A DNA stretch of 39,697 nucleotides, taken from the NCBI GenBank assembly GCA_043811275.1, contig JBDRNG010000039.1, positions 1-39,697 on the forward strand, written 5' to 3'. Position 1 is the stretch's first letter, and the number at the start of each line of letters is the position of its first letter. The notes beneath the pieces were generated by a model that worked only from the letters and a program-made list of their open reading frames with translations, searched no databases and had not been told where the DNA came from. The translations under genes were made by a program, and so were the position numbers. Below, piece by piece: positions 258-35,153 of this stretch. The stretch comes from Candidatus Falkowbacteria bacterium (lineage in GTDB: Bacteria > Patescibacteriota > Patescibacteriia > Patescibacteriales > XYC2-FULL-47-12).

Positions 258-1223
258 TTAAATTTTAGATTGCGTCTTTCCCTTAAACCTAAATATCTGT
301 ATTATCCATGCCAAAATTAAATTGTCCCAATTAGCTATTTTTAAAATAAACCAAGCCAATGAACCATGATGTTTCTTAAAATAAATCAACATTCCCCTAT
401 TAAATCGCTTTTGTTTAATTAAACTTAATTGTTGGGCAAAACTTCTACCTTCATAGTGGATTACACGACTAACTGGTGTGTATATTATTTTTTCACCGAA
501 CTTTCTTAATCGCTTACATAGATCAAGATCTTCCCACCAAATAAAATAATCTTCTGACCAACCACCTATCTTTAACATAATATCGCGACGGATAAAAACA
601 AAAGCTCCCATAATCTGCTCCACTTCCTGTTCATGGGCATAATCAAAATCTTTAGCTAGATATTTTTTTAAAAACCAGGGCTGCCAAAAATGATGTAGTT
701 TATATAAAATCCAAAGCTGTGATAAAAAACTCGGATCACGTTTTATATTTGGCTGGCGATGCCCGTCGCCGTATTGCAGTTGGCAAGTGCATGCACTTAC
801 CTCGCCCTTGTCCTTCGTAGCTTCAGTATAGGATGAAGCGTAGAAGGATTCCATATAATCATACAATAATTTAGGCGTATTTTCTACTAGTTCCATATCA
901 GGATTCATAAATAAAACATATTTTCCCTTCGCTTTTTGCAGCCCCTGATTATTAGCTTTAGCAAAACCAACATTTTCTTCATTAAAAATAACCTGTAAAT
1001 TATCATGCTCTCCGCCCGAGGTGGATCCCTGCCTACCGGACAGGCAGGCGCCTTGGACGGAAAAAGTCAAAAAATTAAGCATCTGCACAGAGCCGTCATC
1101 TGAATTATTATCTATCACAATGATTTCATAATCAATATTTTCTGTAAATAAAAAAATAGACTTAAGACATTGGTGCAGTAAGTCGCGCACATTCCAGTTG
1201 ACGATGATAATAGATAAATTCAT
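258..1223 (-). CDS. GT2 family glycosyltransferase (rhamnosyltransferase-like) with two in-frame palindromic insertions
   Basis: LSIIIVNWN, IIVIDNNSDDGS, NVGFAKANNQG, NPD and FIWWEDLDLC motifs. Start moved to the ATG at 1223 because the upstream 35 codons are a GTCATTGCG repeat. Confidence 0.9.
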   Translation of the reverse strand: MNLSIIIVNWNVRDLLHQCLKSIFLFTENIDYEIIVIDNNSDDGSVQMLNFLTFSVQGACLSGRQGSTSGGEHDNLQVIFNEENVGFAKANNQGLQKAKGKYVLFMNPDMELVENTPKLLYDYMESFYASSYTEATKDKGEVSACTCQLQYGDGHRQPNIKRDPSFLSQLWILYKLHHFWQPWFLKKYLAKDFDYAHEQEVEQIMGAFVFIRRDIMLKIGGWSEDYFIWWEDLDLCKRLRKFGEKIIYTPVSRVIHYEGRSFAQQLSLIKQKRFNRGMLIYFKKHHGSLAWFILKIANWDNLILAWIIQIFRFKGKTQSKI

Positions 1224-2229: not shown

Positions 2230-3333
2230 CTACCTTCGCCAAAGCTTCGGCAAGGCAAATAATTTAACAATTTTATTTACCTGCCCTTCCCAACTAAACT
2301 TCTTCACCCACTCCCTTCCCTGCTCACCTAATTTTTTTGCCAACTCTTCATCTTTACATAATTTAACAATCGCCTTGCTAATTTCTTCTACACTTTCTGG
2401 ATTTACTAATAATCCGTTCACGCCATTCTGAACTGCATCTCGCACTCCCCCGCTATCGCCAGCAATGACTGGCTTGCCGTGGACGTTCGCTTCTAAATAA
2501 ACAATTCCAAATCCTTCAAAGTCGCCATCAATATTTCTGGCCGGCATTATAAAAATATCGCAAAGATTATACCAAGCCTCAACCTCTTCATTGCTGGCGT
2601 CAGTTATCAGTATTACATGATTTTTGATATTGGATATTTGATATTGGATATTTGATATTTCAGGCCCATCACCAATAATTATATACATTAAATCCGGCAC
2701 TTCATTTAATACTTGTAGCATCGCCTCTAGCGCTTTATCAACTCCTTTTCTCTTCACTAATCGCCCCACCTGTAATAAAATCTTTTTATTTTGTAAATTA
2801 TATTTCTCAATTAGTTGTTTTCTTGTTTTCTTGCTTGTCCTCCGTAGCTTTGGCGAAGGTGGGTTTTCTTGTTTTTTTATCGTGACGCCTGGATTAACAA
2901 TCACAACTTTATCCTCATCTACCAACTCCTTCAGCAACTCGCCTGCATAACTGTTCGCCGTAATCACCTTCTTAGCATTAGCTAAAATCTTGCGGGTTAT
3001 TTTTTTCTTGCGCGCATACTTATTAATAATCCCTAATTCCATGCCATGAATAAAAACAACATAATCAAGCCTCATGATTCTGCTTAACCAATACGCTACT
3101 GTGCCTAATGGTAAAACATGACCGACTAATACTGTCTTCACCTTGTACTTTTTAATCGCTTGCCATAAATAAAATACAGAAAAAATCCAATGCGGTTTAG
3201 TTAACTTTTTCCCTGTCAATACAAAAATATCACCAACTATCCAGTATTTTACAACATTACTATAATAAGTAGCTACCCCGCCTATTTGGGGTGGATACTC
3301 TAAGGTGAATAATAATACATTATCTTTTGACAT
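2230..3333 (-). CDS. GT4 family glycosyltransferase
   Basis: EYPPQIGGVA, VGRLVKRKG and EGFGIVYLEA..GKPVIAGDSGG motifs. Confidence 0.92.
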   Translation of the reverse strand: MSKDNVLLFTLEYPPQIGGVATYYSNVVKYWIVGDIFVLTGKKLTKPHWIFSVFYLWQAIKKYKVKTVLVGHVLPLGTVAYWLSRIMRLDYVVFIHGMELGIINKYARKKKITRKILANAKKVITANSYAGELLKELVDEDKVVIVNPGVTIKKQENPPSPKLRRTSKKTRKQLIEKYNLQNKKILLQVGRLVKRKGVDKALEAMLQVLNEVPDLMYIIIGDGPEISNIQYQISNIKNHVILITDASNEEVEAWYNLCDIFIMPARNIDGDFEGFGIVYLEANVHGKPVIAGDSGGVRDAVQNGVNGLLVNPESVEEISKAIVKLCKDEELAKKLGEQGREWVKKFSWEGQVNKIVKLFALPKLWRR

Positions 3334-5615: not shown

Positions 5616-5894
5616 TTATTTATTATCTTTTTGTCCCCTCTCCCCGTGGGAGAGGGTTAGGGTGAGAGCATTTTTCTCTGCTCTAGACAACTTCTTAATC
5701 CTAAACTCCTCTTTCAACGCCTCCGACTTATCTTTACTAGAACTTGAATATACTAACTTCACTGGACGACGACCTCTGGTATATTTAGCGCCTAACGTAG
5801 AACTATTATGTTCTTCCACTCTCCTCTTTAAATCAGTCGTCACTCCAGTATAAAAACTCCCACCTTTGCATTGTAAAATATAAGTGTACCACAT
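5616..5894 (-). CDS. GIY-YIG nuclease family protein (UPF0213-like)
   Basis: YTYILQC..SFYTGVTTDLKRRVEEHN..GAKYTRGRRP..ALKEE.RIKKLSR. The C-terminal LTLTLSHGERG is encoded by a palindromic repeat. Confidence 0.92.
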   Translation of the reverse strand: MWYTYILQCKGGSFYTGVTTDLKRRVEEHNSSTLGAKYTRGRRPVKLVYSSSSKDKSEALKEEFRIKKLSRAEKNALTLTLSHGERGQKDNK

Positions 5895-8649: not shown

Positions 8650-9069
8650 TTAACGTTTTGACCATTGCGGCGCTCGACGGGCTTTTTTCAAACCAGGTTT
8701 TTTACGTTCTTTCTTGCGAGCATCACGAGTAGTTAAGCCACTTGCTTTTAAGGCTGGTTTTGCTTCTTTATTTATAATTAATAAAGCGCGGGTGATACCA
8801 TGACGGATTGCTTCTGCTTGTCCGACTTTACCGCCACCTTTTACTAAAATAGAAAATCCTAATTCTTTATCAGCTCCAGCTAATTTTAATGGCTGCATAA
8901 TTAAGTTGATTGATTCTTTGGAAGGAAAATAATCTTTTACATCTTTGTCATTTACAATAATAACACCTTTACCATTTTTATATAGGCGTATTTGAGCCGC
9001 AGATGTTTTTCGTCTGCCAATAGCGGTAATATATTTTCCTGTAAATTTTTCTTTTGTTTCTTCGGGCAT
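8650..9069 (-). CDS. rpsI: 30S ribosomal protein S9
   Basis: GRRKTS, GGGKVGQAEAIRHG and ERKKPGLKKARRAPQWSKR. Confidence 0.98.
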   Translation of the reverse strand: MPEETKEKFTGKYITAIGRRKTSAAQIRLYKNGKGVIIVNDKDVKDYFPSKESINLIMQPLKLAGADKELGFSILVKGGGKVGQAEAIRHGITRALLIINKEAKPALKASGLTTRDARKKERKKPGLKKARRAPQWSKR

Positions 9070-9127
9070 AATTAGAGTCTAAAGTTTAAAAGTCATAAAG
9101 TCTAAAGTCCATTTGACTTTTTTATTT

Positions 9128-9484
9128 TTAACTAATTTTTAATCGCTTTATCATTTCTTTACGTAATTTATTTTTAGGCAGCATATTCCAAACAGCTTTG
9201 CGTAAAACTTCGGTTGGATTCTTTTCAAAAAATTCATTTAATTTTGTAGTTTTTAAACTACCCGGATAACCAGAATGACGATAATATTCTTTTTGATCTA
9301 ATTTTTTTCCAGTAAATTTTGCTTGTTTAATATTTTTTACTTCTACCTCGTCGCCTATATCAATATTTAACTGGAATTCTGGTTTATGTTTTCCACGCAA
9401 AAGACCAGCAATTTCAGTAGCCATTCGGCCAATTGCTTTGTCAGTCGCATCTATTTTATGTAATTGTCGTTCTGTCTTATTCAT
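9128..9484 (-). CDS. rplM: 50S ribosomal protein L13 (short form)
   Basis: IDA..GRMA..LRGKHKP, YYRHSGYPG and MLPKNKL. Confidence 0.97.
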   Translation of the reverse strand: MNKTERQLHKIDATDKAIGRMATEIAGLLRGKHKPEFQLNIDIGDEVEVKNIKQAKFTGKKLDQKEYYRHSGYPGSLKTTKLNEFFEKNPTEVLRKAVWNMLPKNKLRKEMIKRLKIS

Positions 9485-21553: not shown

Positions 21554-22030
21554 CCCCACAAATCTACAAATCAGCTACAAATAATACAAATCTCTATTTT
21601 TGTAGATTATTAGGATTTAAAATTCTAATGGATTTAACACCACTAGGTGTGAAGTTAGCTAAAATAGCTAGTTTTAAACCTGTAATTTGGAGATACTGTT
21701 TAACTTGATCCATATTCTGTTTTGAAAAGTGATTTCCTTTTTTTATTTCTAAAACTATTTTTTCATCTACAATAAAATCTATATAATTCGTAGCTATAAT
21801 TTTATTATTAACTCTAATTTTATACGGAGCTTGTCTTGTGTATTTTATGTTTCTGCTAATAAAATATTGTTCAATTCCTTTTTCGTAATATTTTTCTTTA
21901 TATCCATAACCTAACTGATTATATGTTTCAAATAATATACCTACTATCTGATAGCTTAAATCTTTATGTAGCACTTTATTGTCGTTCATAGCATTTGTAT
22001 TATTTGTAGCTGATTTGTAGATTTGTGGGG
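21554..22030. mobile_element. Inverted-repeat-bounded GxxExxY cassette (putative mobile or intervening element)
   Basis: Perfect 38-bp inverted repeats at 21554-21591 and 21993-22030 enclose exactly one gene. Confidence 0.65.
21594..21989 (-). CDS. GxxExxY protein (PD-(D/E)xK nuclease-like)
   Basis: LGYGYKEKYY, IDFIVDEKIVLEIK, Q...YL and LANF motifs. Confidence 0.92.
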   Translation of the reverse strand: MNDNKVLHKDLSYQIVGILFETYNQLGYGYKEKYYEKGIEQYFISRNIKYTRQAPYKIRVNNKIIATNYIDFIVDEKIVLEIKKGNHFSKQNMDQVKQYLQITGLKLAILANFTPSGVKSIRILNPNNLQK

Positions 22031-26430: not shown

Positions 26431-26787
26431 TTAATTTTTATTTGCGTTTTTAACGCTTTTAACTAAAATGCAAATAATTTCCTCACTTTCTTCTATTAAT
26501 AATTTCATTTTATCTTTCTGCATTAAACCAACTGCTATTATCATTTCTAACCAACGTTTAGTTTCTTTTGCTTCTTTTAATGATATCCTTAGATGATTTA
26601 TAAAATCTTTTCTAGAAACACCTCCTTTAGCTTGAACTATATTAGAATTTATTGAAGTAGAGGAATTTATTACTTGCCCGCCAATTTTCCAAGCAACAAC
26701 ATTATTTGGCAGGCACAAAACCATTTTTATTACTCTTACGGCAAATTGAAAAGTACGTTCATCAATATCCCAAATCTTTTCATTCAT
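26431..26787 (-). CDS. Four helix bundle protein (23S rRNA IVP-like family)
   Basis: ERTFQFAVRVI, QVINSSTSI.SNI, SRKDF...L.ISLKEAKET..WL. Confidence 0.9.
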   Translation of the reverse strand: MNEKIWDIDERTFQFAVRVIKMVLCLPNNVVAWKIGGQVINSSTSINSNIVQAKGGVSRKDFINHLRISLKEAKETKRWLEMIIAVGLMQKDKMKLLIEESEEIICILVKSVKNANKN

Positions 26788-27004: not shown

Positions 27005-27335
27005 GTTCAATAAATCATTTATGGATCTATTAAATATAATGAACCATTAATCCGAATAATATGTATTTATCTAAAATTTCATGCAACTATCCGAATGTTC
27101 CGAATTCTGTTTATTAAATTTAATTCGAATGAAATAATTTGTAGAATTTGCCTGCCCGCAATGTAAAGTATAGCTTTGGCAGGCGGGTAACAAACATTTG
27201 GGGCATTCGCCACGCCCGTCCCGCTGACGCAGTCGGTCGGGCGGGGATTTATTTGTGTCAGAGTAGATACGTACAGAGTATTTGGATTTCCGCCCGAGGC
27301 GGATCAGCCTTGGGCTGAAAACGATCACAGATGTT
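27005..27335 (-). repeat. Rod-like structured element, copy 3, interrupted by three palindromic insertions
   Basis: AACCATTAATCCGAATA and TGCAACTATCCGAAT blocks shared with copies 1 and 2. Confidence 0.7.
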
Positions 27336-27669: not shown

Positions 27670-28155
27670 TTAATATGATTTCTTACTTTTTGTTATACTC
27701 GGCTCCTTATCATAAAACGGCTCTACTGTATTATTCTTTTTACAGTTTTTCACTCTCTGATAACCTTTCTTTATTAATTCATCTATATTTTCAAATTCAT
27801 TCGCTTTTATACCAACCACTGAAATATTTAATCCATAAGCTAGCGCGTTAGCAGTGGCCACGCCTATCCGTGTAGCTGAAAAAGGTCCTGAACCATTTAC
27901 CACTACAATGCCTTTTATCTGACTTAAGTCCAGAGCTCTCTGGACTTTACCCCGTCCTACGCCAGTAACGCAGGGTTTACTCCGCCTAGAATTTAAATTC
28001 AGGCAGAGTGAACCCAGTAATTTATCAATTGTTTTAAGTAATTTCTCTGATTGCTGGTACTTTGCCTTAACTCTGCTTTTTGCCATTAAAACACCCTTAT
28101 CGCCTAAAGCGACAGTCATAATCTCGGAATCGGTTGTGTTTATGTATAAAGTCAT
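27670..28155 (-). CDS. tsaB: tRNA t6A biosynthesis protein TsaB, short form with an in-frame insertion
   Basis: LYINT, QSEKLL..ID.LL, GIVVVNGSGPFSATRIGVATANALAY. Confidence 0.88.
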   Translation of the reverse strand: MTLYINTTDSEIMTVALGDKGVLMAKSRVKAKYQQSEKLLKTIDKLLGSLCLNLNSRRSKPCVTGVGRGKVQRALDLSQIKGIVVVNGSGPFSATRIGVATANALAYGLNISVVGIKANEFENIDELIKKGYQRVKNCKKNNTVEPFYDKEPSITKSKKSY

Positions 28156-29549: not shown

Positions 29550-32500
29550 TTATATATTAACAGATGATTCCATGTTGTTCTGTAAAATTTTAATTAATTC
29601 ACCCCTTCTCATGTCTTTAATATTTAATTTTATATCATTGTTTTCATTTTTGAATTGGATTTGTTTTGGTGTTAATATAGCGTTTGACTCTATTGTACCT
29701 TGTTTATAACTTATTTTTATTTTGTCATTTTCTATTTTCTCAACATCATACCCTTTATCATCCCCAACAAGCGCCTGTAAAGCCGCTTTGTTGTTATTAA
29801 TATCATTATCAAATAAATCTCGTAATGCACTTTGTTCAGTTTCAGTTAAAGTATTATAATTAAATAATTTTTCTGCCCCTTCCCCCTTACCAAAATACCC
29901 TTCCGGATCCTTTAAATTATTTTTCATATCTTCGCTTGAAATATTTTCTAATTTTAATTCTCCTATTTTAGAGCCATCACTACTAAACAAAATAGCCTTG
30001 TCACCAAGTATTCTTACTTTTGAGCTGTCATTATATTTAAAAATTATTTCATTACTTTCAGTTATACTAACTGATTTTATTATACCTAAATCTTTATCAA
30101 TACTTCCGAGAATTTCTGAAGCATCTCCTTTGTCACTAAATATATTTAACAACGCCACTTGCATACTTTCATCAAAATATCCCCTATCAACTATTTTAAA
30201 ATTATCAGCTAACTCCATTGGAGGAATCCCTGTCTTTTCAGCTAAGCTATTAAACTTATCTAATCTATTTTCTGGAATACCATGCGCTTTAAGGGTATTT
30301 AATCTTGATTGCTCATCTGGTGTTCCTGCCTGCTTTTCTACCACAAGAGCTTGCTCTTGAGGTTTTACTTCTGTCCCTGTTGTTCCTACTTCAGGTGTAG
30401 CATCAACTTTAGATTCATTAACATCAGTTACCTTCTGATTTAGTTCTTCTGCTTTCTCTACTGCTTCAGGAGTATCACTTCCTGATTCTGGCTCCGCTAC
30501 TTCCCCACTACCTATAGACTCTTCCGCTATACTTTGCGTCTCTATTCCTCCCCTTGCTAAGGGGGGGCTAGGGGGGGTATTTTTTTCACTCCCAACCTCT
30601 GTAACATCCTTAACACTATCTACGCTACTATCCCCTTGCACTGTAGCTAAAATTTTAACATTTTCCGGACCATCAATTTCTTTATCAACAATCGCCACCT
30701 CCATATTCTTTCCGTGAAAAACTGCTTTACCGTTTTCTGCGGTAAATAAATTACTTTCTTGTGGAATTATTAATTTTCCATTATCATCAACGTTTAAAGA
30801 AATTACTTCTTGCTGATTTTCGCCAGTAGAAAATAATATCTTTACTTCCTTTCCCTCTTCCACAAGACCTTTAACATTTTCTTCCTCTAACATATCCTTA
30901 ATATCTAAAACAAAATCTCCATCCTTATTTATCCCAGTTCTTTCTACCCCGCCCCACTTAAGCATCTGTTCATTCTCACCCTTTATCCACTCACGATTTT
31001 TTATGGTAAACGTTTCTTGTGAGGTTTCTGGGGTTGTTTCAGGTTCAGGTTCAGGTTCTGGTGTTGTTGGTTCTGATAGTTTTTGGTTTTCTATTTGTTT
31101 TTCTAATTCTTCAACCTCGTCTTTTAATGCGTCTGCTAAATCATGATCACCTCTTTGTTCATATCTATCTATTAACTGTTTTCCCGCCACAACTTTTTTA
31201 TCTAAATTTCTCTCTCCTGTAAATTTATCCTCTAACATACTAAGAGGTGTTTCTGGGGCGGAAGTTTCTGGTGGGGTTGGGGTTGATTCTTCAATTTTAC
31301 TAACTTTTGAATCTGATACTACCTCATCACCGCCCCAAACATACCCACGTATTAACCAACCCAAAGTAGCAAATGTGGCGCCCAACGTTACTCCTTTACC
31401 CATTTGTTTTAATAAATACGTCTTTTTCTCTTTAGCTACTTTTGAATATTTTTTATTTAAACGATTTTCTAATCGCTCTGGTAACCTACCTAATTGTTTT
31501 ACTAACTTATCATTTTCTATGTCTATATCATCTGCACTATTAACAACGCTATCTGCCTTGGCAAGTTTTTGCATTAACTCATAATGATTAACAATCCTTT
31601 TATTTTCTTCACCAAAATTAACTAAACCACTATCAATCTTTTCTGATGTATAATTAATCCTTTCTTTCAAGAAAGCAAGAATTTTTTTTATCTTTTCTCT
31701 GTTCTTGTCATCTTGTTTGCCTTTATTAAGAGAACTATATTTATTAAAATCACTAATTGTATATTCTAATTTTTTAGTTAAACTTTCAGCGTCTACAAGA
31801 TCATAAGTTTCTTTGCTTTTATCTTTTGTTCCTTTGCGCCCTAATTTTTCGCGCTCAATTAAGCTCTCTTTCCCTCTTTTTCTGGCTATAAGCCCACCTA
31901 TTAATCCAGCCACTGCCGGAACTGCTATAGCTCCTAATAAACTAACTGTTACCGTTCTAGTAATAAAACCTGCTCCAGTATATATCCCTCTTTCAGTTAA
32001 AGTATCTTTAAGTGTTTTTCTCCATAATCCCTTATCACTAATATTTTGTAATTCTTTTTCTACTTCAGGATTAGTATTTAAAAATTGATTAAATTGAACA
32101 TTGCGATCAATTTCAAATATTTTTTCTTCTGCCTTTTTGTCATAAAGCATATTTTCCATCAATTCTCCGCGAGCTTTTTCATAATCTTCTTTAACTTTAT
32201 TCCATTTTTCTATATCCTTATTACTAGCTGTACTCTCATACGACCACTCATGTGGTATTTTACTAAACTCCGTAGCTATTTTATTAAATTTTTTAATAAC
32301 ACTTTCATGCACATTTTCCAATCCTGAGGCATATTGAATTTCTAACTCACTTTTTTCATTCACTTCTACTTCTGTATTAAAATTTTTCATTCCGTTTACT
32401 AACTGCTGTAAAACATCTTTATGCATTTCTATACCACCTGCTTTTATTTCAGCTAATTCTTCTTTTTCCTTTTTAGCTATTTGATATTGCTTAGTAATTC

Positions 32501-35153
32501 CTTTCCATATTCTAGAAAAAATACCAACATTAGATAAATCTTTATGATAACCAGCTCTAGACGCATCTTGTGTTCTACCTAGAGTAATTTGTTTTAAATT
32601 TTCTAAAACTAAAAATTGTTGTCCTTCTGAGAGCTCATCAAATCCTTCTACCTTTTTCATGTCTTCAAGGGATATATTAAATTTTTCTAATCCACCTTCA
32701 ACGCTTGCTTCATGTATTTCATCTGGAATCTCTATTTCTTTCTGTTCTTCTTCAATAGATTCTGCTGGTTTTTCTGTTGATTCTACAAATTCTGCTTCCG
32801 CTACACTTCCTGATGGATTAAGCTTTAATAAATCATTAATAAGAATAATTTTTTTTACTTCTTTATTTTCTACTTCAACACTCTGCACAGTTAACGAAGT
32901 TTTATCTGTTACTGGCTGAGGATTATAAATAATTTTTTTAATCACAAAGTCATTCTCAATGTCACCTGAACTTCTCTTTACTTTAACATAATCTCCTGTC
33001 TCAAATAATGCCTCACCCACTCTAAATCTATTTTTTTCATCTTTTTCTGCATTTTCAAGCTTCTCTGTCTTTTTTTTCAGCTTTACCTCTCCCTCTTCTT
33101 CTATTGGCTTTTCTTTTACTTCCTCCTTATCTTTCTGCTCAATTGTCTCTTTTAATCTTTCACTAAAAAGATGCGACTCAAATAAATGATCTGAAGGCGC
33201 TAATTCTATATCTAAAAGACTATCATACTCTTTTAACTTACTAACAATTTTGTTAATTTCATCATCGCCCTTAGTAGCAAGGTCTTCTGTATTAAATACA
33301 TCATCTGTAAACTTAAATATTTCATCAAGTAGATCATCCTCAATTTTACTTTCTGGCAAAGAAACATCTCCTTCAGATGCTTTTCTTCTTCTATTTTTTA
33401 GCTTTTCTATCTTTGATTTTATACCTAAAGCAAGCTCATGCTGTATTTTTATAGGCTCCATTTTTTCAATTTTTTCTTCCTCTGCTTCTACCGATTCTTC
33501 TTCTTTTATTATTCCTCTTTCTTTAAGTAACTCTATAAATTCTTCTTCGGATATACCAGTGTCCTTTAAAAGTTTCATAGCTAAATCTAATCGTTCTTGA
33601 TGACTATATTTTGATTCCGCTTTTTCATATGCATTTAAAGCTAACTCTATCCATGTTTCTGTAGTTTTTTGCTTAACTGCTGACCCAATTTCAATTGCCT
33701 CACCCTCTGATGATAAAATAAATTTTTCTACTAGTTTATCTGTTGGACTATTTTTATCAACAGTCCCTGCTTCTTCTTTCTGTTTAATGCTTTTATCCCA
33801 TTTAATAGTTTCTTCATCCCATTTGATAAGCTTATTTGTCTGTAAATAAGTAAAAACATCTTCTCCCTCTTCTTTTGCTTTTTTGGTATCCTCTTCTTTT
33901 TCTACAGAATATAAACGCGCAAATTTTTCTCTTGTTAAAGGCCCTTCTTTTTTAAATATTTTTAATCCTAATTTATTTTTTTCACTAATTTCTTCTTCTG
34001 TTTCTGTTTCTGTTTTTTCAGGAGGAGTTGTTTCCTGTTCTTCTTCAACATCCTCTACAGCATCGTTTAATGTTGTTTCTATTTCTTTATGAGTTAATAT
34101 TTCTTCAGATTCTTCCTCCTCTATTATTCCTCTTTCTTTAAGTAATTCTGTAAATTCTTCTACAGACATACCCGCTTCCGTTAAATCATCCTTGAGTAAA
34201 TATAATAAATCTTCATGACTCTCTTCTGATTTCATTTCTTTATATGTAGTTAAAGCTAACTCTATCTGTGGTTTTTCCTCTTCTGTTTTTTGTTTAACAT
34301 CAAACTCATCAACAAATTCTTTTACTCTTTCTGAAGTAACTTCTTGCTTGTTTTCTTTTTTTGCTTGCACCGCTTCTTCCTTTGACATTTTAGGAAGCAC
34401 AGGTTTAGTAATTTTAGAATCTTCTTTCTCTTCCTCAACCGTCGGCGCAGTTTCAGTTTTTTTAGGCCAATTTAATTCTACTAATTCATCTGGGGCAACA
34501 TGTATTCTTATTTTTTTTCCTTTTTCTCCTTTTTCTAAAACATAAGATCCTATTTCACCGTTACTATTTTTTACTCTGCCAGCGACTTTCCACCCTTCTT
34601 CTCGTATACCATCTTTATTTTTACCTATCACCTCTTGGCCTATTTGAAAAGCGCCCTTTTCTTGTATTTTTATCTCTGGCTTTTCTTCTTTAGCAGGAAA
34701 CTCTTTATCAAGGTGTTGCGCTAATTCTTTAGTGAATTCTTTTCTACCAGTTTCTTTTTTTTCTAAAAATTTTAAAAATTCTTGTTTAGTAGTATTATAT
34801 TCAGCAAATTCATCATCTTCGGTCATAACTCCTATGATAGCATCCTTATCATACACTCCTAACTTCACTAATTCATCATAAAGATTAATCAAATCATTCA
34901 TGTTCGCTTTTTCTTGAGATGCAGGCTGTTCTTTTTCAGCCTCAATATCCTCTCCTATAATAACAGGGGTGGGTTTTGGTTTTTCAGATTTAATTTTTTT
35001 ATCCTTTTCTTTTGATTTTTGCTTTTCTTGCTTTAGCTTTTCTGATCTTCCTTGAAATCCTGCCTTATTGTCAACAAAATCCTCTCCATTCTCTTCTTCG
35101 TCTTGTCCACTCTCATTTTGCCTTGATTTATATTTTTCTCTTTCATCTACCAT
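29550..35153 (-). CDS. Giant Glu/Lys-rich protein with internal repeats and two hydrophobic Gly-rich segments
   Basis: 1867-aa uninterrupted ORF, duplicated IELAL...EEF.ELLKERGII.EEES module, membrane-like segments in the C-terminal half. Confidence 0.8.
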   Translation of the reverse strand: MVDEREKYKSRQNESGQDEEENGEDFVDNKAGFQGRSEKLKQEKQKSKEKDKKIKSEKPKPTPVIIGEDIEAEKEQPASQEKANMNDLINLYDELVKLGVYDKDAIIGVMTEDDEFAEYNTTKQEFLKFLEKKETGRKEFTKELAQHLDKEFPAKEEKPEIKIQEKGAFQIGQEVIGKNKDGIREEGWKVAGRVKNSNGEIGSYVLEKGEKGKKIRIHVAPDELVELNWPKKTETAPTVEEEKEDSKITKPVLPKMSKEEAVQAKKENKQEVTSERVKEFVDEFDVKQKTEEEKPQIELALTTYKEMKSEESHEDLLYLLKDDLTEAGMSVEEFTELLKERGIIEEEESEEILTHKEIETTLNDAVEDVEEEQETTPPEKTETETEEEISEKNKLGLKIFKKEGPLTREKFARLYSVEKEEDTKKAKEEGEDVFTYLQTNKLIKWDEETIKWDKSIKQKEEAGTVDKNSPTDKLVEKFILSSEGEAIEIGSAVKQKTTETWIELALNAYEKAESKYSHQERLDLAMKLLKDTGISEEEFIELLKERGIIKEEESVEAEEEKIEKMEPIKIQHELALGIKSKIEKLKNRRRKASEGDVSLPESKIEDDLLDEIFKFTDDVFNTEDLATKGDDEINKIVSKLKEYDSLLDIELAPSDHLFESHLFSERLKETIEQKDKEEVKEKPIEEEGEVKLKKKTEKLENAEKDEKNRFRVGEALFETGDYVKVKRSSGDIENDFVIKKIIYNPQPVTDKTSLTVQSVEVENKEVKKIILINDLLKLNPSGSVAEAEFVESTEKPAESIEEEQKEIEIPDEIHEASVEGGLEKFNISLEDMKKVEGFDELSEGQQFLVLENLKQITLGRTQDASRAGYHKDLSNVGIFSRIWKGITKQYQIAKKEKEELAEIKAGGIEMHKDVLQQLVNGMKNFNTEVEVNEKSELEIQYASGLENVHESVIKKFNKIATEFSKIPHEWSYESTASNKDIEKWNKVKEDYEKARGELMENMLYDKKAEEKIFEIDRNVQFNQFLNTNPEVEKELQNISDKGLWRKTLKDTLTERGIYTGAGFITRTVTVSLLGAIAVPAVAGLIGGLIARKRGKESLIEREKLGRKGTKDKSKETYDLVDAESLTKKLEYTISDFNKYSSLNKGKQDDKNREKIKKILAFLKERINYTSEKIDSGLVNFGEENKRIVNHYELMQKLAKADSVVNSADDIDIENDKLVKQLGRLPERLENRLNKKYSKVAKEKKTYLLKQMGKGVTLGATFATLGWLIRGYVWGGDEVVSDSKVSKIEESTPTPPETSAPETPLSMLEDKFTGERNLDKKVVAGKQLIDRYEQRGDHDLADALKDEVEELEKQIENQKLSEPTTPEPEPEPETTPETSQETFTIKNREWIKGENEQMLKWGGVERTGINKDGDFVLDIKDMLEEENVKGLVEEGKEVKILFSTGENQQEVISLNVDDNGKLIIPQESNLFTAENGKAVFHGKNMEVAIVDKEIDGPENVKILATVQGDSSVDSVKDVTEVGSEKNTPPSPPLARGGIETQSIAEESIGSGEVAEPESGSDTPEAVEKAEELNQKVTDVNESKVDATPEVGTTGTEVKPQEQALVVEKQAGTPDEQSRLNTLKAHGIPENRLDKFNSLAEKTGIPPMELADNFKIVDRGYFDESMQVALLNIFSDKGDASEILGSIDKDLGIIKSVSITESNEIIFKYNDSSKVRILGDKAILFSSDGSKIGELKLENISSEDMKNNLKDPEGYFGKGEGAEKLFNYNTLTETEQSALRDLFDNDINNNKAALQALVGDDKGYDVEKIENDKIKISYKQGTIESNAILTPKQIQFKNENNDIKLNIKDMRRGELIKILQNNMESSVNI

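Follow-up and report, generated by a model that had tools for sequence, protein, structure and literature searches.

How does a conserved enzyme gene come to carry, in frame, one hairpin repeat nested inside another? This question was raised by a family 2 glycosyltransferase (GT2) gene in the stretch of DNA analyzed here (the window, 39,697 nt), which is contig C39 of genome G000 (665 kb, 34% GC, 59% complete). The host of the gene is an ultra-small groundwater bacterium, and the organisms named for the closest homologs indicate Patescibacteria. The main comparison was with G001, a genome of the same genus with about 82% DNA identity to G000, of which 67 of about 80 contigs (916 kb) were covered. 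We consider one explanation highly probable as a whole: two dispersed hairpin repeats arrived sequentially as selfish elements, were tolerated as whole codons, and are likely translated.

Integrity and predicted fold of the GT2 gene

The gene and the second of its two inserts are located as follows.
258..1223, minus strand: GT2 gene, 321 aa (292 aa without the two inserts), Pfam PF00535.
807..848, minus strand: second in-frame hairpin insert, about 42 nt, composed of a member of a ~30-nt family and about 12 nt.

The start codon was set by homolog alignment at the ATG at 1223, which gives the 321 aa protein, and not at 1328, where the longer open reading frame (ORF) starts. Immediately upstream of the true start, a long GC-rich hairpin repeat (1233-1327) accounts for 35 spurious N-terminal residues in the 356-aa ORF. 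Members of this repeat family also lie on both sides of a GIY-YIG gene at position 24889 of contig C21 in G000.

Two inserts in one gene, together with the presence of other GT2 paralogs in G000, could be taken as signs of a young pseudogene that is accumulating repeats. We regard this as barely credible. The frame is open over a normal length, the catalytic motifs NPD and WEDLD were retained, and the comparison with the G001 ortholog, inserts excluded, gave dN 0.032, dS 0.255 and dN/dS 0.12 for this one genome pair. Moreover, an ortholog was found in 10/10 family genomes (in one, split across two contigs), and the nested insert is common to two species. Judged from these sequence data, the gene is intact and not decaying, although decay had been named in the first-pass annotation as the reading opposed to its own.

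The AlphaFold2 model of the protein had a GT-A fold with a mean pLDDT of 86. The first insert lies between a helix and a strand, with pLDDT <50 at residues 60-71, and the second forms a block at residues 131-140 with a mean pLDDT of 56. Both inserts were thus placed in low-confidence loops of the predicted fold; the annotation had proposed such a structure prediction to see whether they lie in surface loops. In 118/120 homologs listed, the segment with the first insertion site is 19-25 aa long; as its length varies naturally among homologs, the first site appears to be a tolerant place.

The second insert is absent from the G001 ortholog, relative to which the net gain is 36 nt or 12 aa. The annotation had described this hairpin as 38-39 nt at 810-848, adding ~13 aa; its existence and frame stood, and the exact size was corrected to ~42 nt at 807-848, with a net 12 aa. 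The 3ʹ part of the insert is a member of an abundant 30-nt family. A related shorter insert occurs in the same loop of P0003 and P0004, which were placed apart from P0001 and P0002 in the tree (supports 80-93), and this combination suggests that the loop is tolerant and may have been hit repeatedly. An in-frame 30-nt hairpin of the second insert's family is also present at ~2838-2868 in ORF 2230-3333, the neighboring GT4 gene.

A 21-nt element within a 30-nt element

The first insert occupies 1011-1061 (51 nt); read on the minus strand it is SVQGACLSGRQGSTSGG, and it adds 17 residues in frame. Its parts, and a free copy of the outer element elsewhere in the window, are listed below.
1011..1027, no strand assigned: outer 30-nt double-hairpin element, first part (arm 1011-1023 and four central bases).
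1028..1048, plus strand: inner 21-nt hairpin element with a 7-bp stem and a 7-nt loop, antisense to GT2 in G000.
1049..1061, no strand assigned: outer element, second part (13-nt arm).
1024..1048, no strand assigned: 25-nt spacer between the outer arms, reversed in G001.
27289..27318, plus strand: free intergenic copy of the outer element, matching the joined outer element at 26/30 positions.

The coordinates, lengths, frame and peptide reported for this insert on first inspection were correct (51 = 30 + 21 nt). It had been described as a 21-nt palindrome inside a 30-nt palindrome; the nesting was confirmed, whereas neither palindrome is perfect, as the inner one has a 7-nt loop and the outer arms in the window differ at 3/13 positions. 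Between the joined outer element (30 nt) and the copy at 27289-27318, 4/30 positions differ, and a free copy with perfect arms is located at position 4646 of contig C18 in G000.

When 37 proteins were aligned, 35/36 homologs had a clean gap in place of the 17 residues, in line with the annotation's view that the protein without them looks like normal GT2 spacing, and orthologs showed gaps at both insertion sites. The long form was present in 2/120 homologs listed, the second carrier being the same-genus (G001) protein. One or both junctions were covered, with zero differences, by contigs from three public runs (two studies), indicating that the insert is not an assembly slip, with the reservation that the window may itself derive from one of these runs and that none of these contigs individually spans the whole insert. 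No empty or flipped allele was seen in the public-run DNA contigs, which counts as proof of nothing.

Sequential arrival of the two elements

Un-nested copies of the outer element, a double hairpin of 30 nt, numbered 15 in G000 and 12 in the G001 contigs covered, and a single 15-nt half of it also inserts by itself. The inner 21-mer (≤3 mismatches) was found in 3 copies in G000 and 12 in G001. Within other repeats lie 13/15 of these copies (5 recognized by pattern, 8 by eye), and 5/15 are at the same position of the outer element, in both geometries. There are six distinct sites with the 21-mer at this outer position, one of which lacks the inner element in the other species. At position 3601 of contig C52 in G000 the outer element stands alone, and its counterpart in contig C44 of G001 has the 21-mer nested inside. 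This pair represents the intermediate state predicted by a sequential model and therefore supports sequential nesting. An empty orthologous site for the inner 21-mer was also found at the G000 counterpart of position 10118 in contig C31 of G001. The same nested junction, with differing outer variants, was present at contig C45 of G000, C24 of G001, C13 of G084, and locus L137.

Sequential insertion, which the first-pass annotation had put forward, was thus borne out by the 27 un-nested outer copies, the recurrent inner position, and the outer-only orthologous site. An outer-only allele of GT2 itself was found neither among the 120 homologs listed nor in the ten family genomes. A more distantly related GT2 homolog (L286 and P0097) has, at another site of the protein, a 10-residue peptide that is typical for the outer element by itself.

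In the sequence of events that we propose, the 30-mer would have entered the genome of the genus ancestor with no duplication of its target, and the 21-mer would then have landed in the 30-mer stem, directly 5ʹ of a C, at a position that is hit recurrently. Insertions in genes that broke the frame would have been purged. Selfish sequential arrival is likely, as is persistence by virtue of whole codons in a tolerant loop.

Copies of the inner family were located in older hairpins more often than control windows (44/144 vs 42/284, p=2e-4). The idea that new hairpins of every family favor older ones was also considered and was unsupported in coding DNA (6/60 vs 78/1200, p=0.28). In noncoding DNA, nesting in older hairpins was weak at −5 kcal/mol (7/37 vs 140/1200, p=0.19); at −7 kcal/mol the counts were 5/37 vs 59/1200 (p=0.04).

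Selection for frame across the genome

G000 was aligned to the 67 G001 contigs (457 kb aligned, 82% identity), and indels of ≥9 nt with well-aligned flanks were kept (n=249), of which 97 were GC-rich hairpins. Whether an indel fell in an ORF or outside was judged in the genome without the insert. The length of hairpin inserts was a multiple of three in 57/60 cases in ORFs, compared to 13/37 outside (Fisher p=1.7e-10), which confirmed the filtering for frame by selection that had been suspected at the GT2 locus. The three exceptional coding cases look like ORF-calling artefacts, as they precede a more likely start codon or fall in what is probably a shadow ORF. As hairpins outside genes were spread evenly across the three length classes, the excess of whole codons points to selection and not to a property of the elements. 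For non-hairpin indels the corresponding values were 43/49 in ORFs and 33/103 outside, as expected for ordinary coding DNA. The genes that host hairpins include rpoB, topA, aspS, pheT, alaS, prfA, tsf, atpG, tsaD, and fmt (43/44 ORFs scanned). In practice, inserts of this kind make essential proteins of these bacteria longer, give rise to false extensions at the N terminus, and can lead alignments astray. Within the window, a further in-frame hairpin insert (net 54 nt, absent in G001) lies at ~27956 in ORF 27670-28155, which is TsaD/TsaB-like.

Another way in which so many essential genes could harbor inserts is that the hairpins are spliced from the message or bypassed by the ribosome, leaving a protein of normal length. 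Translational bypassing occurs at the mitochondrial 'byps', and the GT2 insert folds better than shuffled sequences on both strands (z −3.0 and −3.4), so that strong RNA hairpins are available in both orientations. However, length would then be irrelevant, and the 3n excess in coding inserts argues against their removal from RNA. Rfam gave zero matches in the window, and the boundaries and families of the inserts are diverse. We therefore hold splicing or bypassing to be very improbable. We infer that the insert is retained in the GT2 protein, where the 17 residues are likely translated as a floppy loop.

The interior of the insert is reversed in G001

In the GT2 gene of G001, the identical position holds an insert of 51 nt that reads SAQGGSLPTGQAGALGG. 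When the 25-nt spacers of G000 and G001 were compared, there were 13 differences in the forward direction and only 1 as reverse complement (24/25 match). Consequently, 10/17 insert residues differ between the two genomes. The 13-nt arms of the G001 insert are perfect, a condition seen in only 1/27 un-nested copies, whereas those of G000 have 3 differences and keep the usual asymmetric loops of the family. Among GC-rich micro-inversions in the 457 kb alignment there were three candidates, of which the GT2 spacer was the sole clear one. Two species carry the GT2 insert, and a third state was not found among the genomes examined.

A single intermolecular template switch accounts for both the reversed spacer and the perfect arms. 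In one lineage, more likely that of G001, such a switch between the 13-nt arms would have reversed the 25-nt spacer and equalized the arms. On the strength of these comparisons we think it probable that spacer inversion and arm equalization in G001 arose in this way. In coding genes of yeast, spacers between inverted repeats have been inverted by template switching, and in REG2 spacer inversion and arm homogenization occurred as a single event, according to the part of that study drawn on here (PMC8604942). The features of these cases are present in GT2, namely a spacer reversed between inverted arms of >9 bp and equalized arms, the latter seen once in the yeast cases drawn upon (REG2). The yeast spacers described there are 2-5 bp, with ≤5 residues changed, whereas the GT2 spacer is 25 nt, changes 10/17 residues, and, unlike them, is itself a mobile repeat (PMC8604942). 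Two other readings were discarded: that the G000 geometry is atypical and hence derived was dropped because contig C24 of G001 shares it, and a flip of the whole element fitted more poorly than a spacer flip, as the G000 arms keep the usual order of the family.

The inversion step, and only that step, would be replaced if the outer element had entered once, in the ancestor, and each species had then acquired the 21-mer on its own, on opposite strands and at the two symmetric copies of its preferred site, or if the 51-nt composite were itself mobile. The 5/15 inner copies at this outer position, in both geometries across G000 and G001, are compatible with independent nesting, as is the occurrence of the G000 geometry at C24 of G001 and of the G001 geometry at C45 of G000. 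Yet independent nesting demands two hits on one 30-nt copy and a separate cause for the perfect G001 arms (1/27). A mobile composite would explain why a G001-like composite, one base apart and likewise with perfect arms, is found in the unrelated lineage L137, but the junction occurs in only 3/316 genomes of the order and in 0/400 other genomes drawn from the phylum. The rarity of clear GC-rich micro-inversions, with just this one in the 457 kb aligned, also speaks for a reading without inversion. Taken together, these alternatives to the template switch seem possible but rather doubtful.

A further reading is that the inserted peptide or hairpin is adaptive, tuning the enzyme or the handling of its mRNA. 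In its favor, two species that share about 82% of their DNA sequence have both retained the insert, and related inserts are found in the second loop in other lineages (P0003, P0004). Against this, 10/17 residues differ between the two species, the insert is absent from 118/120 homologs listed, and it is predicted to be disordered. Adaptation is very unlikely. The GT2 insert taken alone is most likely a neutral passenger.

The inner 21-mer in other bacteria and phages

The exact 21-mer, with one loop position free, was found at at least 123 loci in GTDB genomes and at 16 viral loci. Its hosts among the matches listed include Bacteroidota, Nitrospirota, Patescibacteria, Dehalococcoidia, proteobacteria, and others. 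The base 3ʹ of the 21-mer was C in 105/144 and T in 32/144 distinct copies (pyrimidine in 137/144). Direct repeats of 2, 3, 4, and 5 nt at its ends were seen in 3, 0, 1, and 0 of 144 copies, indicating no target duplication; as the insertion ends have a one-base register ambiguity, this applies to duplications above 1 nt. An open frame ran across the 21-mer at 61/140 loci of adequate length, and a hand tally of the single-frame loci (n=55) gave the peptide LPTGQAG in 37 and CLSGRQ in 5. Copies in tandem arrays of 6-7 nt were noted at L151, L167, L199, L211, L193, L157, and others. On a viral contig (L326, 20 kb fetched) there were 6 inner 21-mers, several of them nested in older copies of the 21-mer. 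Scanning of 22/104 ORFs of this phage identified a terminase, a P22-like portal, lysins, and a PD-(D/E)XK nuclease, and no transposase was among these 22.

It is a speculative possibility that the 21-mer is a minimal mobile element of many phyla and phages that inserts into single strands, without duplication, before a pyrimidine and preferably in older stems, and that its nested genic copies act as flippable cassettes which rewrite ~10 loop residues per step. If true, such cassettes would let Patescibacteria arrive quickly at new peptide sequences.

Comparison with known repeat elements

In the portions of the reports used here, Rickettsia palindromic elements (RPE; Ogata et al. 2000, 2002) are dispersed palindromes of about 105-150 bp, found in intergenic regions and in frame in conserved genes, without clear target duplication or a known mobilizer, and for one enzyme with an RPE both translation and activity were demonstrated (PMC2229807, PMC10969869). 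The repeats described here are likewise dispersed, palindromic, and in frame in conserved protein genes. Their sizes (21, 30, and about 42 nt) fall outside the 105-150 bp given for RPE, and, unlike RPE as described there, they comprise many short families, nest mutually, and include an inner element that extends beyond one genus.

The intragenic GTAG/CGTC REPs with RAYT subclass 2.4, as far as the cited accounts go, are GC-rich hairpins of 20-40 bp, some of which are in-frame parts of genes for replication, repair, and tRNA ligases and are thought to be neutral in loops (PMC3733652, PMC6006769). A GC-rich stem-loop of 20-40 bp is shared with them as they are described. In contrast to these REPs, GTAG, GTGG, or CGTC was present within 6 nt in just 4/144 inner copies and was absent at the outer ends in the window. 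Compared to MITEs, which have target-site duplications, TA termini, and 70-300 bp, the elements are too short, and no duplication was found at the GT2 site or in the 144 copies.

A further parallel is cyanobacterial. Elhai and coworkers are said to have described SDR1-8 in 2008 as mobile units of 21-27 nt that insert in other repeats and in frame, and that are reportedly confined to Nostocaceae. Copies of cyanobacterial SDR elements sit in short tandem arrays. Here, too, a 21-nt unit is mobile, with empty orthologous sites (C52:3601 in G000 and the G000 counterpart of C31:10118 in G001), and copies land in heptamer arrays and in other palindromes. An SDR5 copy inserted into HIP1 is mentioned in the part of the literature consulted (PMC5861425).

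A literature search, largely without subscription papers, found no publications on such inserts in Patescibacteria. The GT2 insert is a selfish coding palindrome of a known kind, in a smaller and nesting form. What it adds to known palindromes is a measured frame filter, a target rule, a recurrent nesting position, and an intragenic inversion of a 25-nt spacer. The spread of protein-coding palindromes has been a standing question ever since they were studied in Rickettsia, and the G000/G001 pair, with dozens of filled and empty sites, the frame filter, the target rule, and the nesting position, makes the mechanism of mobilization testable.

Candidate mobilizers

The lack of duplication, the one-sided pyrimidine rule, and the landing in hairpin stems would fit insertion into single-stranded DNA. 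Our guess is a host single-strand nuclease or transposase acting in trans, of the HUH/Y1 or small GIY-YIG type. No match to a Y1/HUH gene and no RAYT (PF01797) was found in G000, which is 59% complete, and PF01797 gave one weak match in G001, with another repeat in its flanks. Small GIY-YIG matches numbered 4 in G000 and 6 in G001, one of them in the window.
5676-5894, minus strand: gene for a small, stand-alone nuclease of the GIY-YIG type, whose 3ʹ end has a GC-rich hairpin repeat.

The GIY-YIG genes are flanked by tRNA genes or other repeat families, and neither of the two GT2 elements was found specifically beside them, except for tRNA-like copies in contig C3 of G001. There, at about 8900-9450, tRNA-like copies riddled with short hairpin inserts flank a small GIY-YIG gene; the inserts resemble the outer half-unit, and an intact-looking tRNA-like copy adjoins.

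Three other features of the window were noted. An ORF of 1867 aa with internal repeats and zero Pfam matches spans 29550-35153. A gene for a four-helix-bundle protein (TIGR02436 / 23S rRNA IVP family) at 26431-26787 adjoins mraZ. At 21554-22030, a GxxExxY gene (TIGR04256, PD-(D/E)XK; 21594-21989) lies between perfect 38-bp inverted repeats and is possibly a small mobile cassette.
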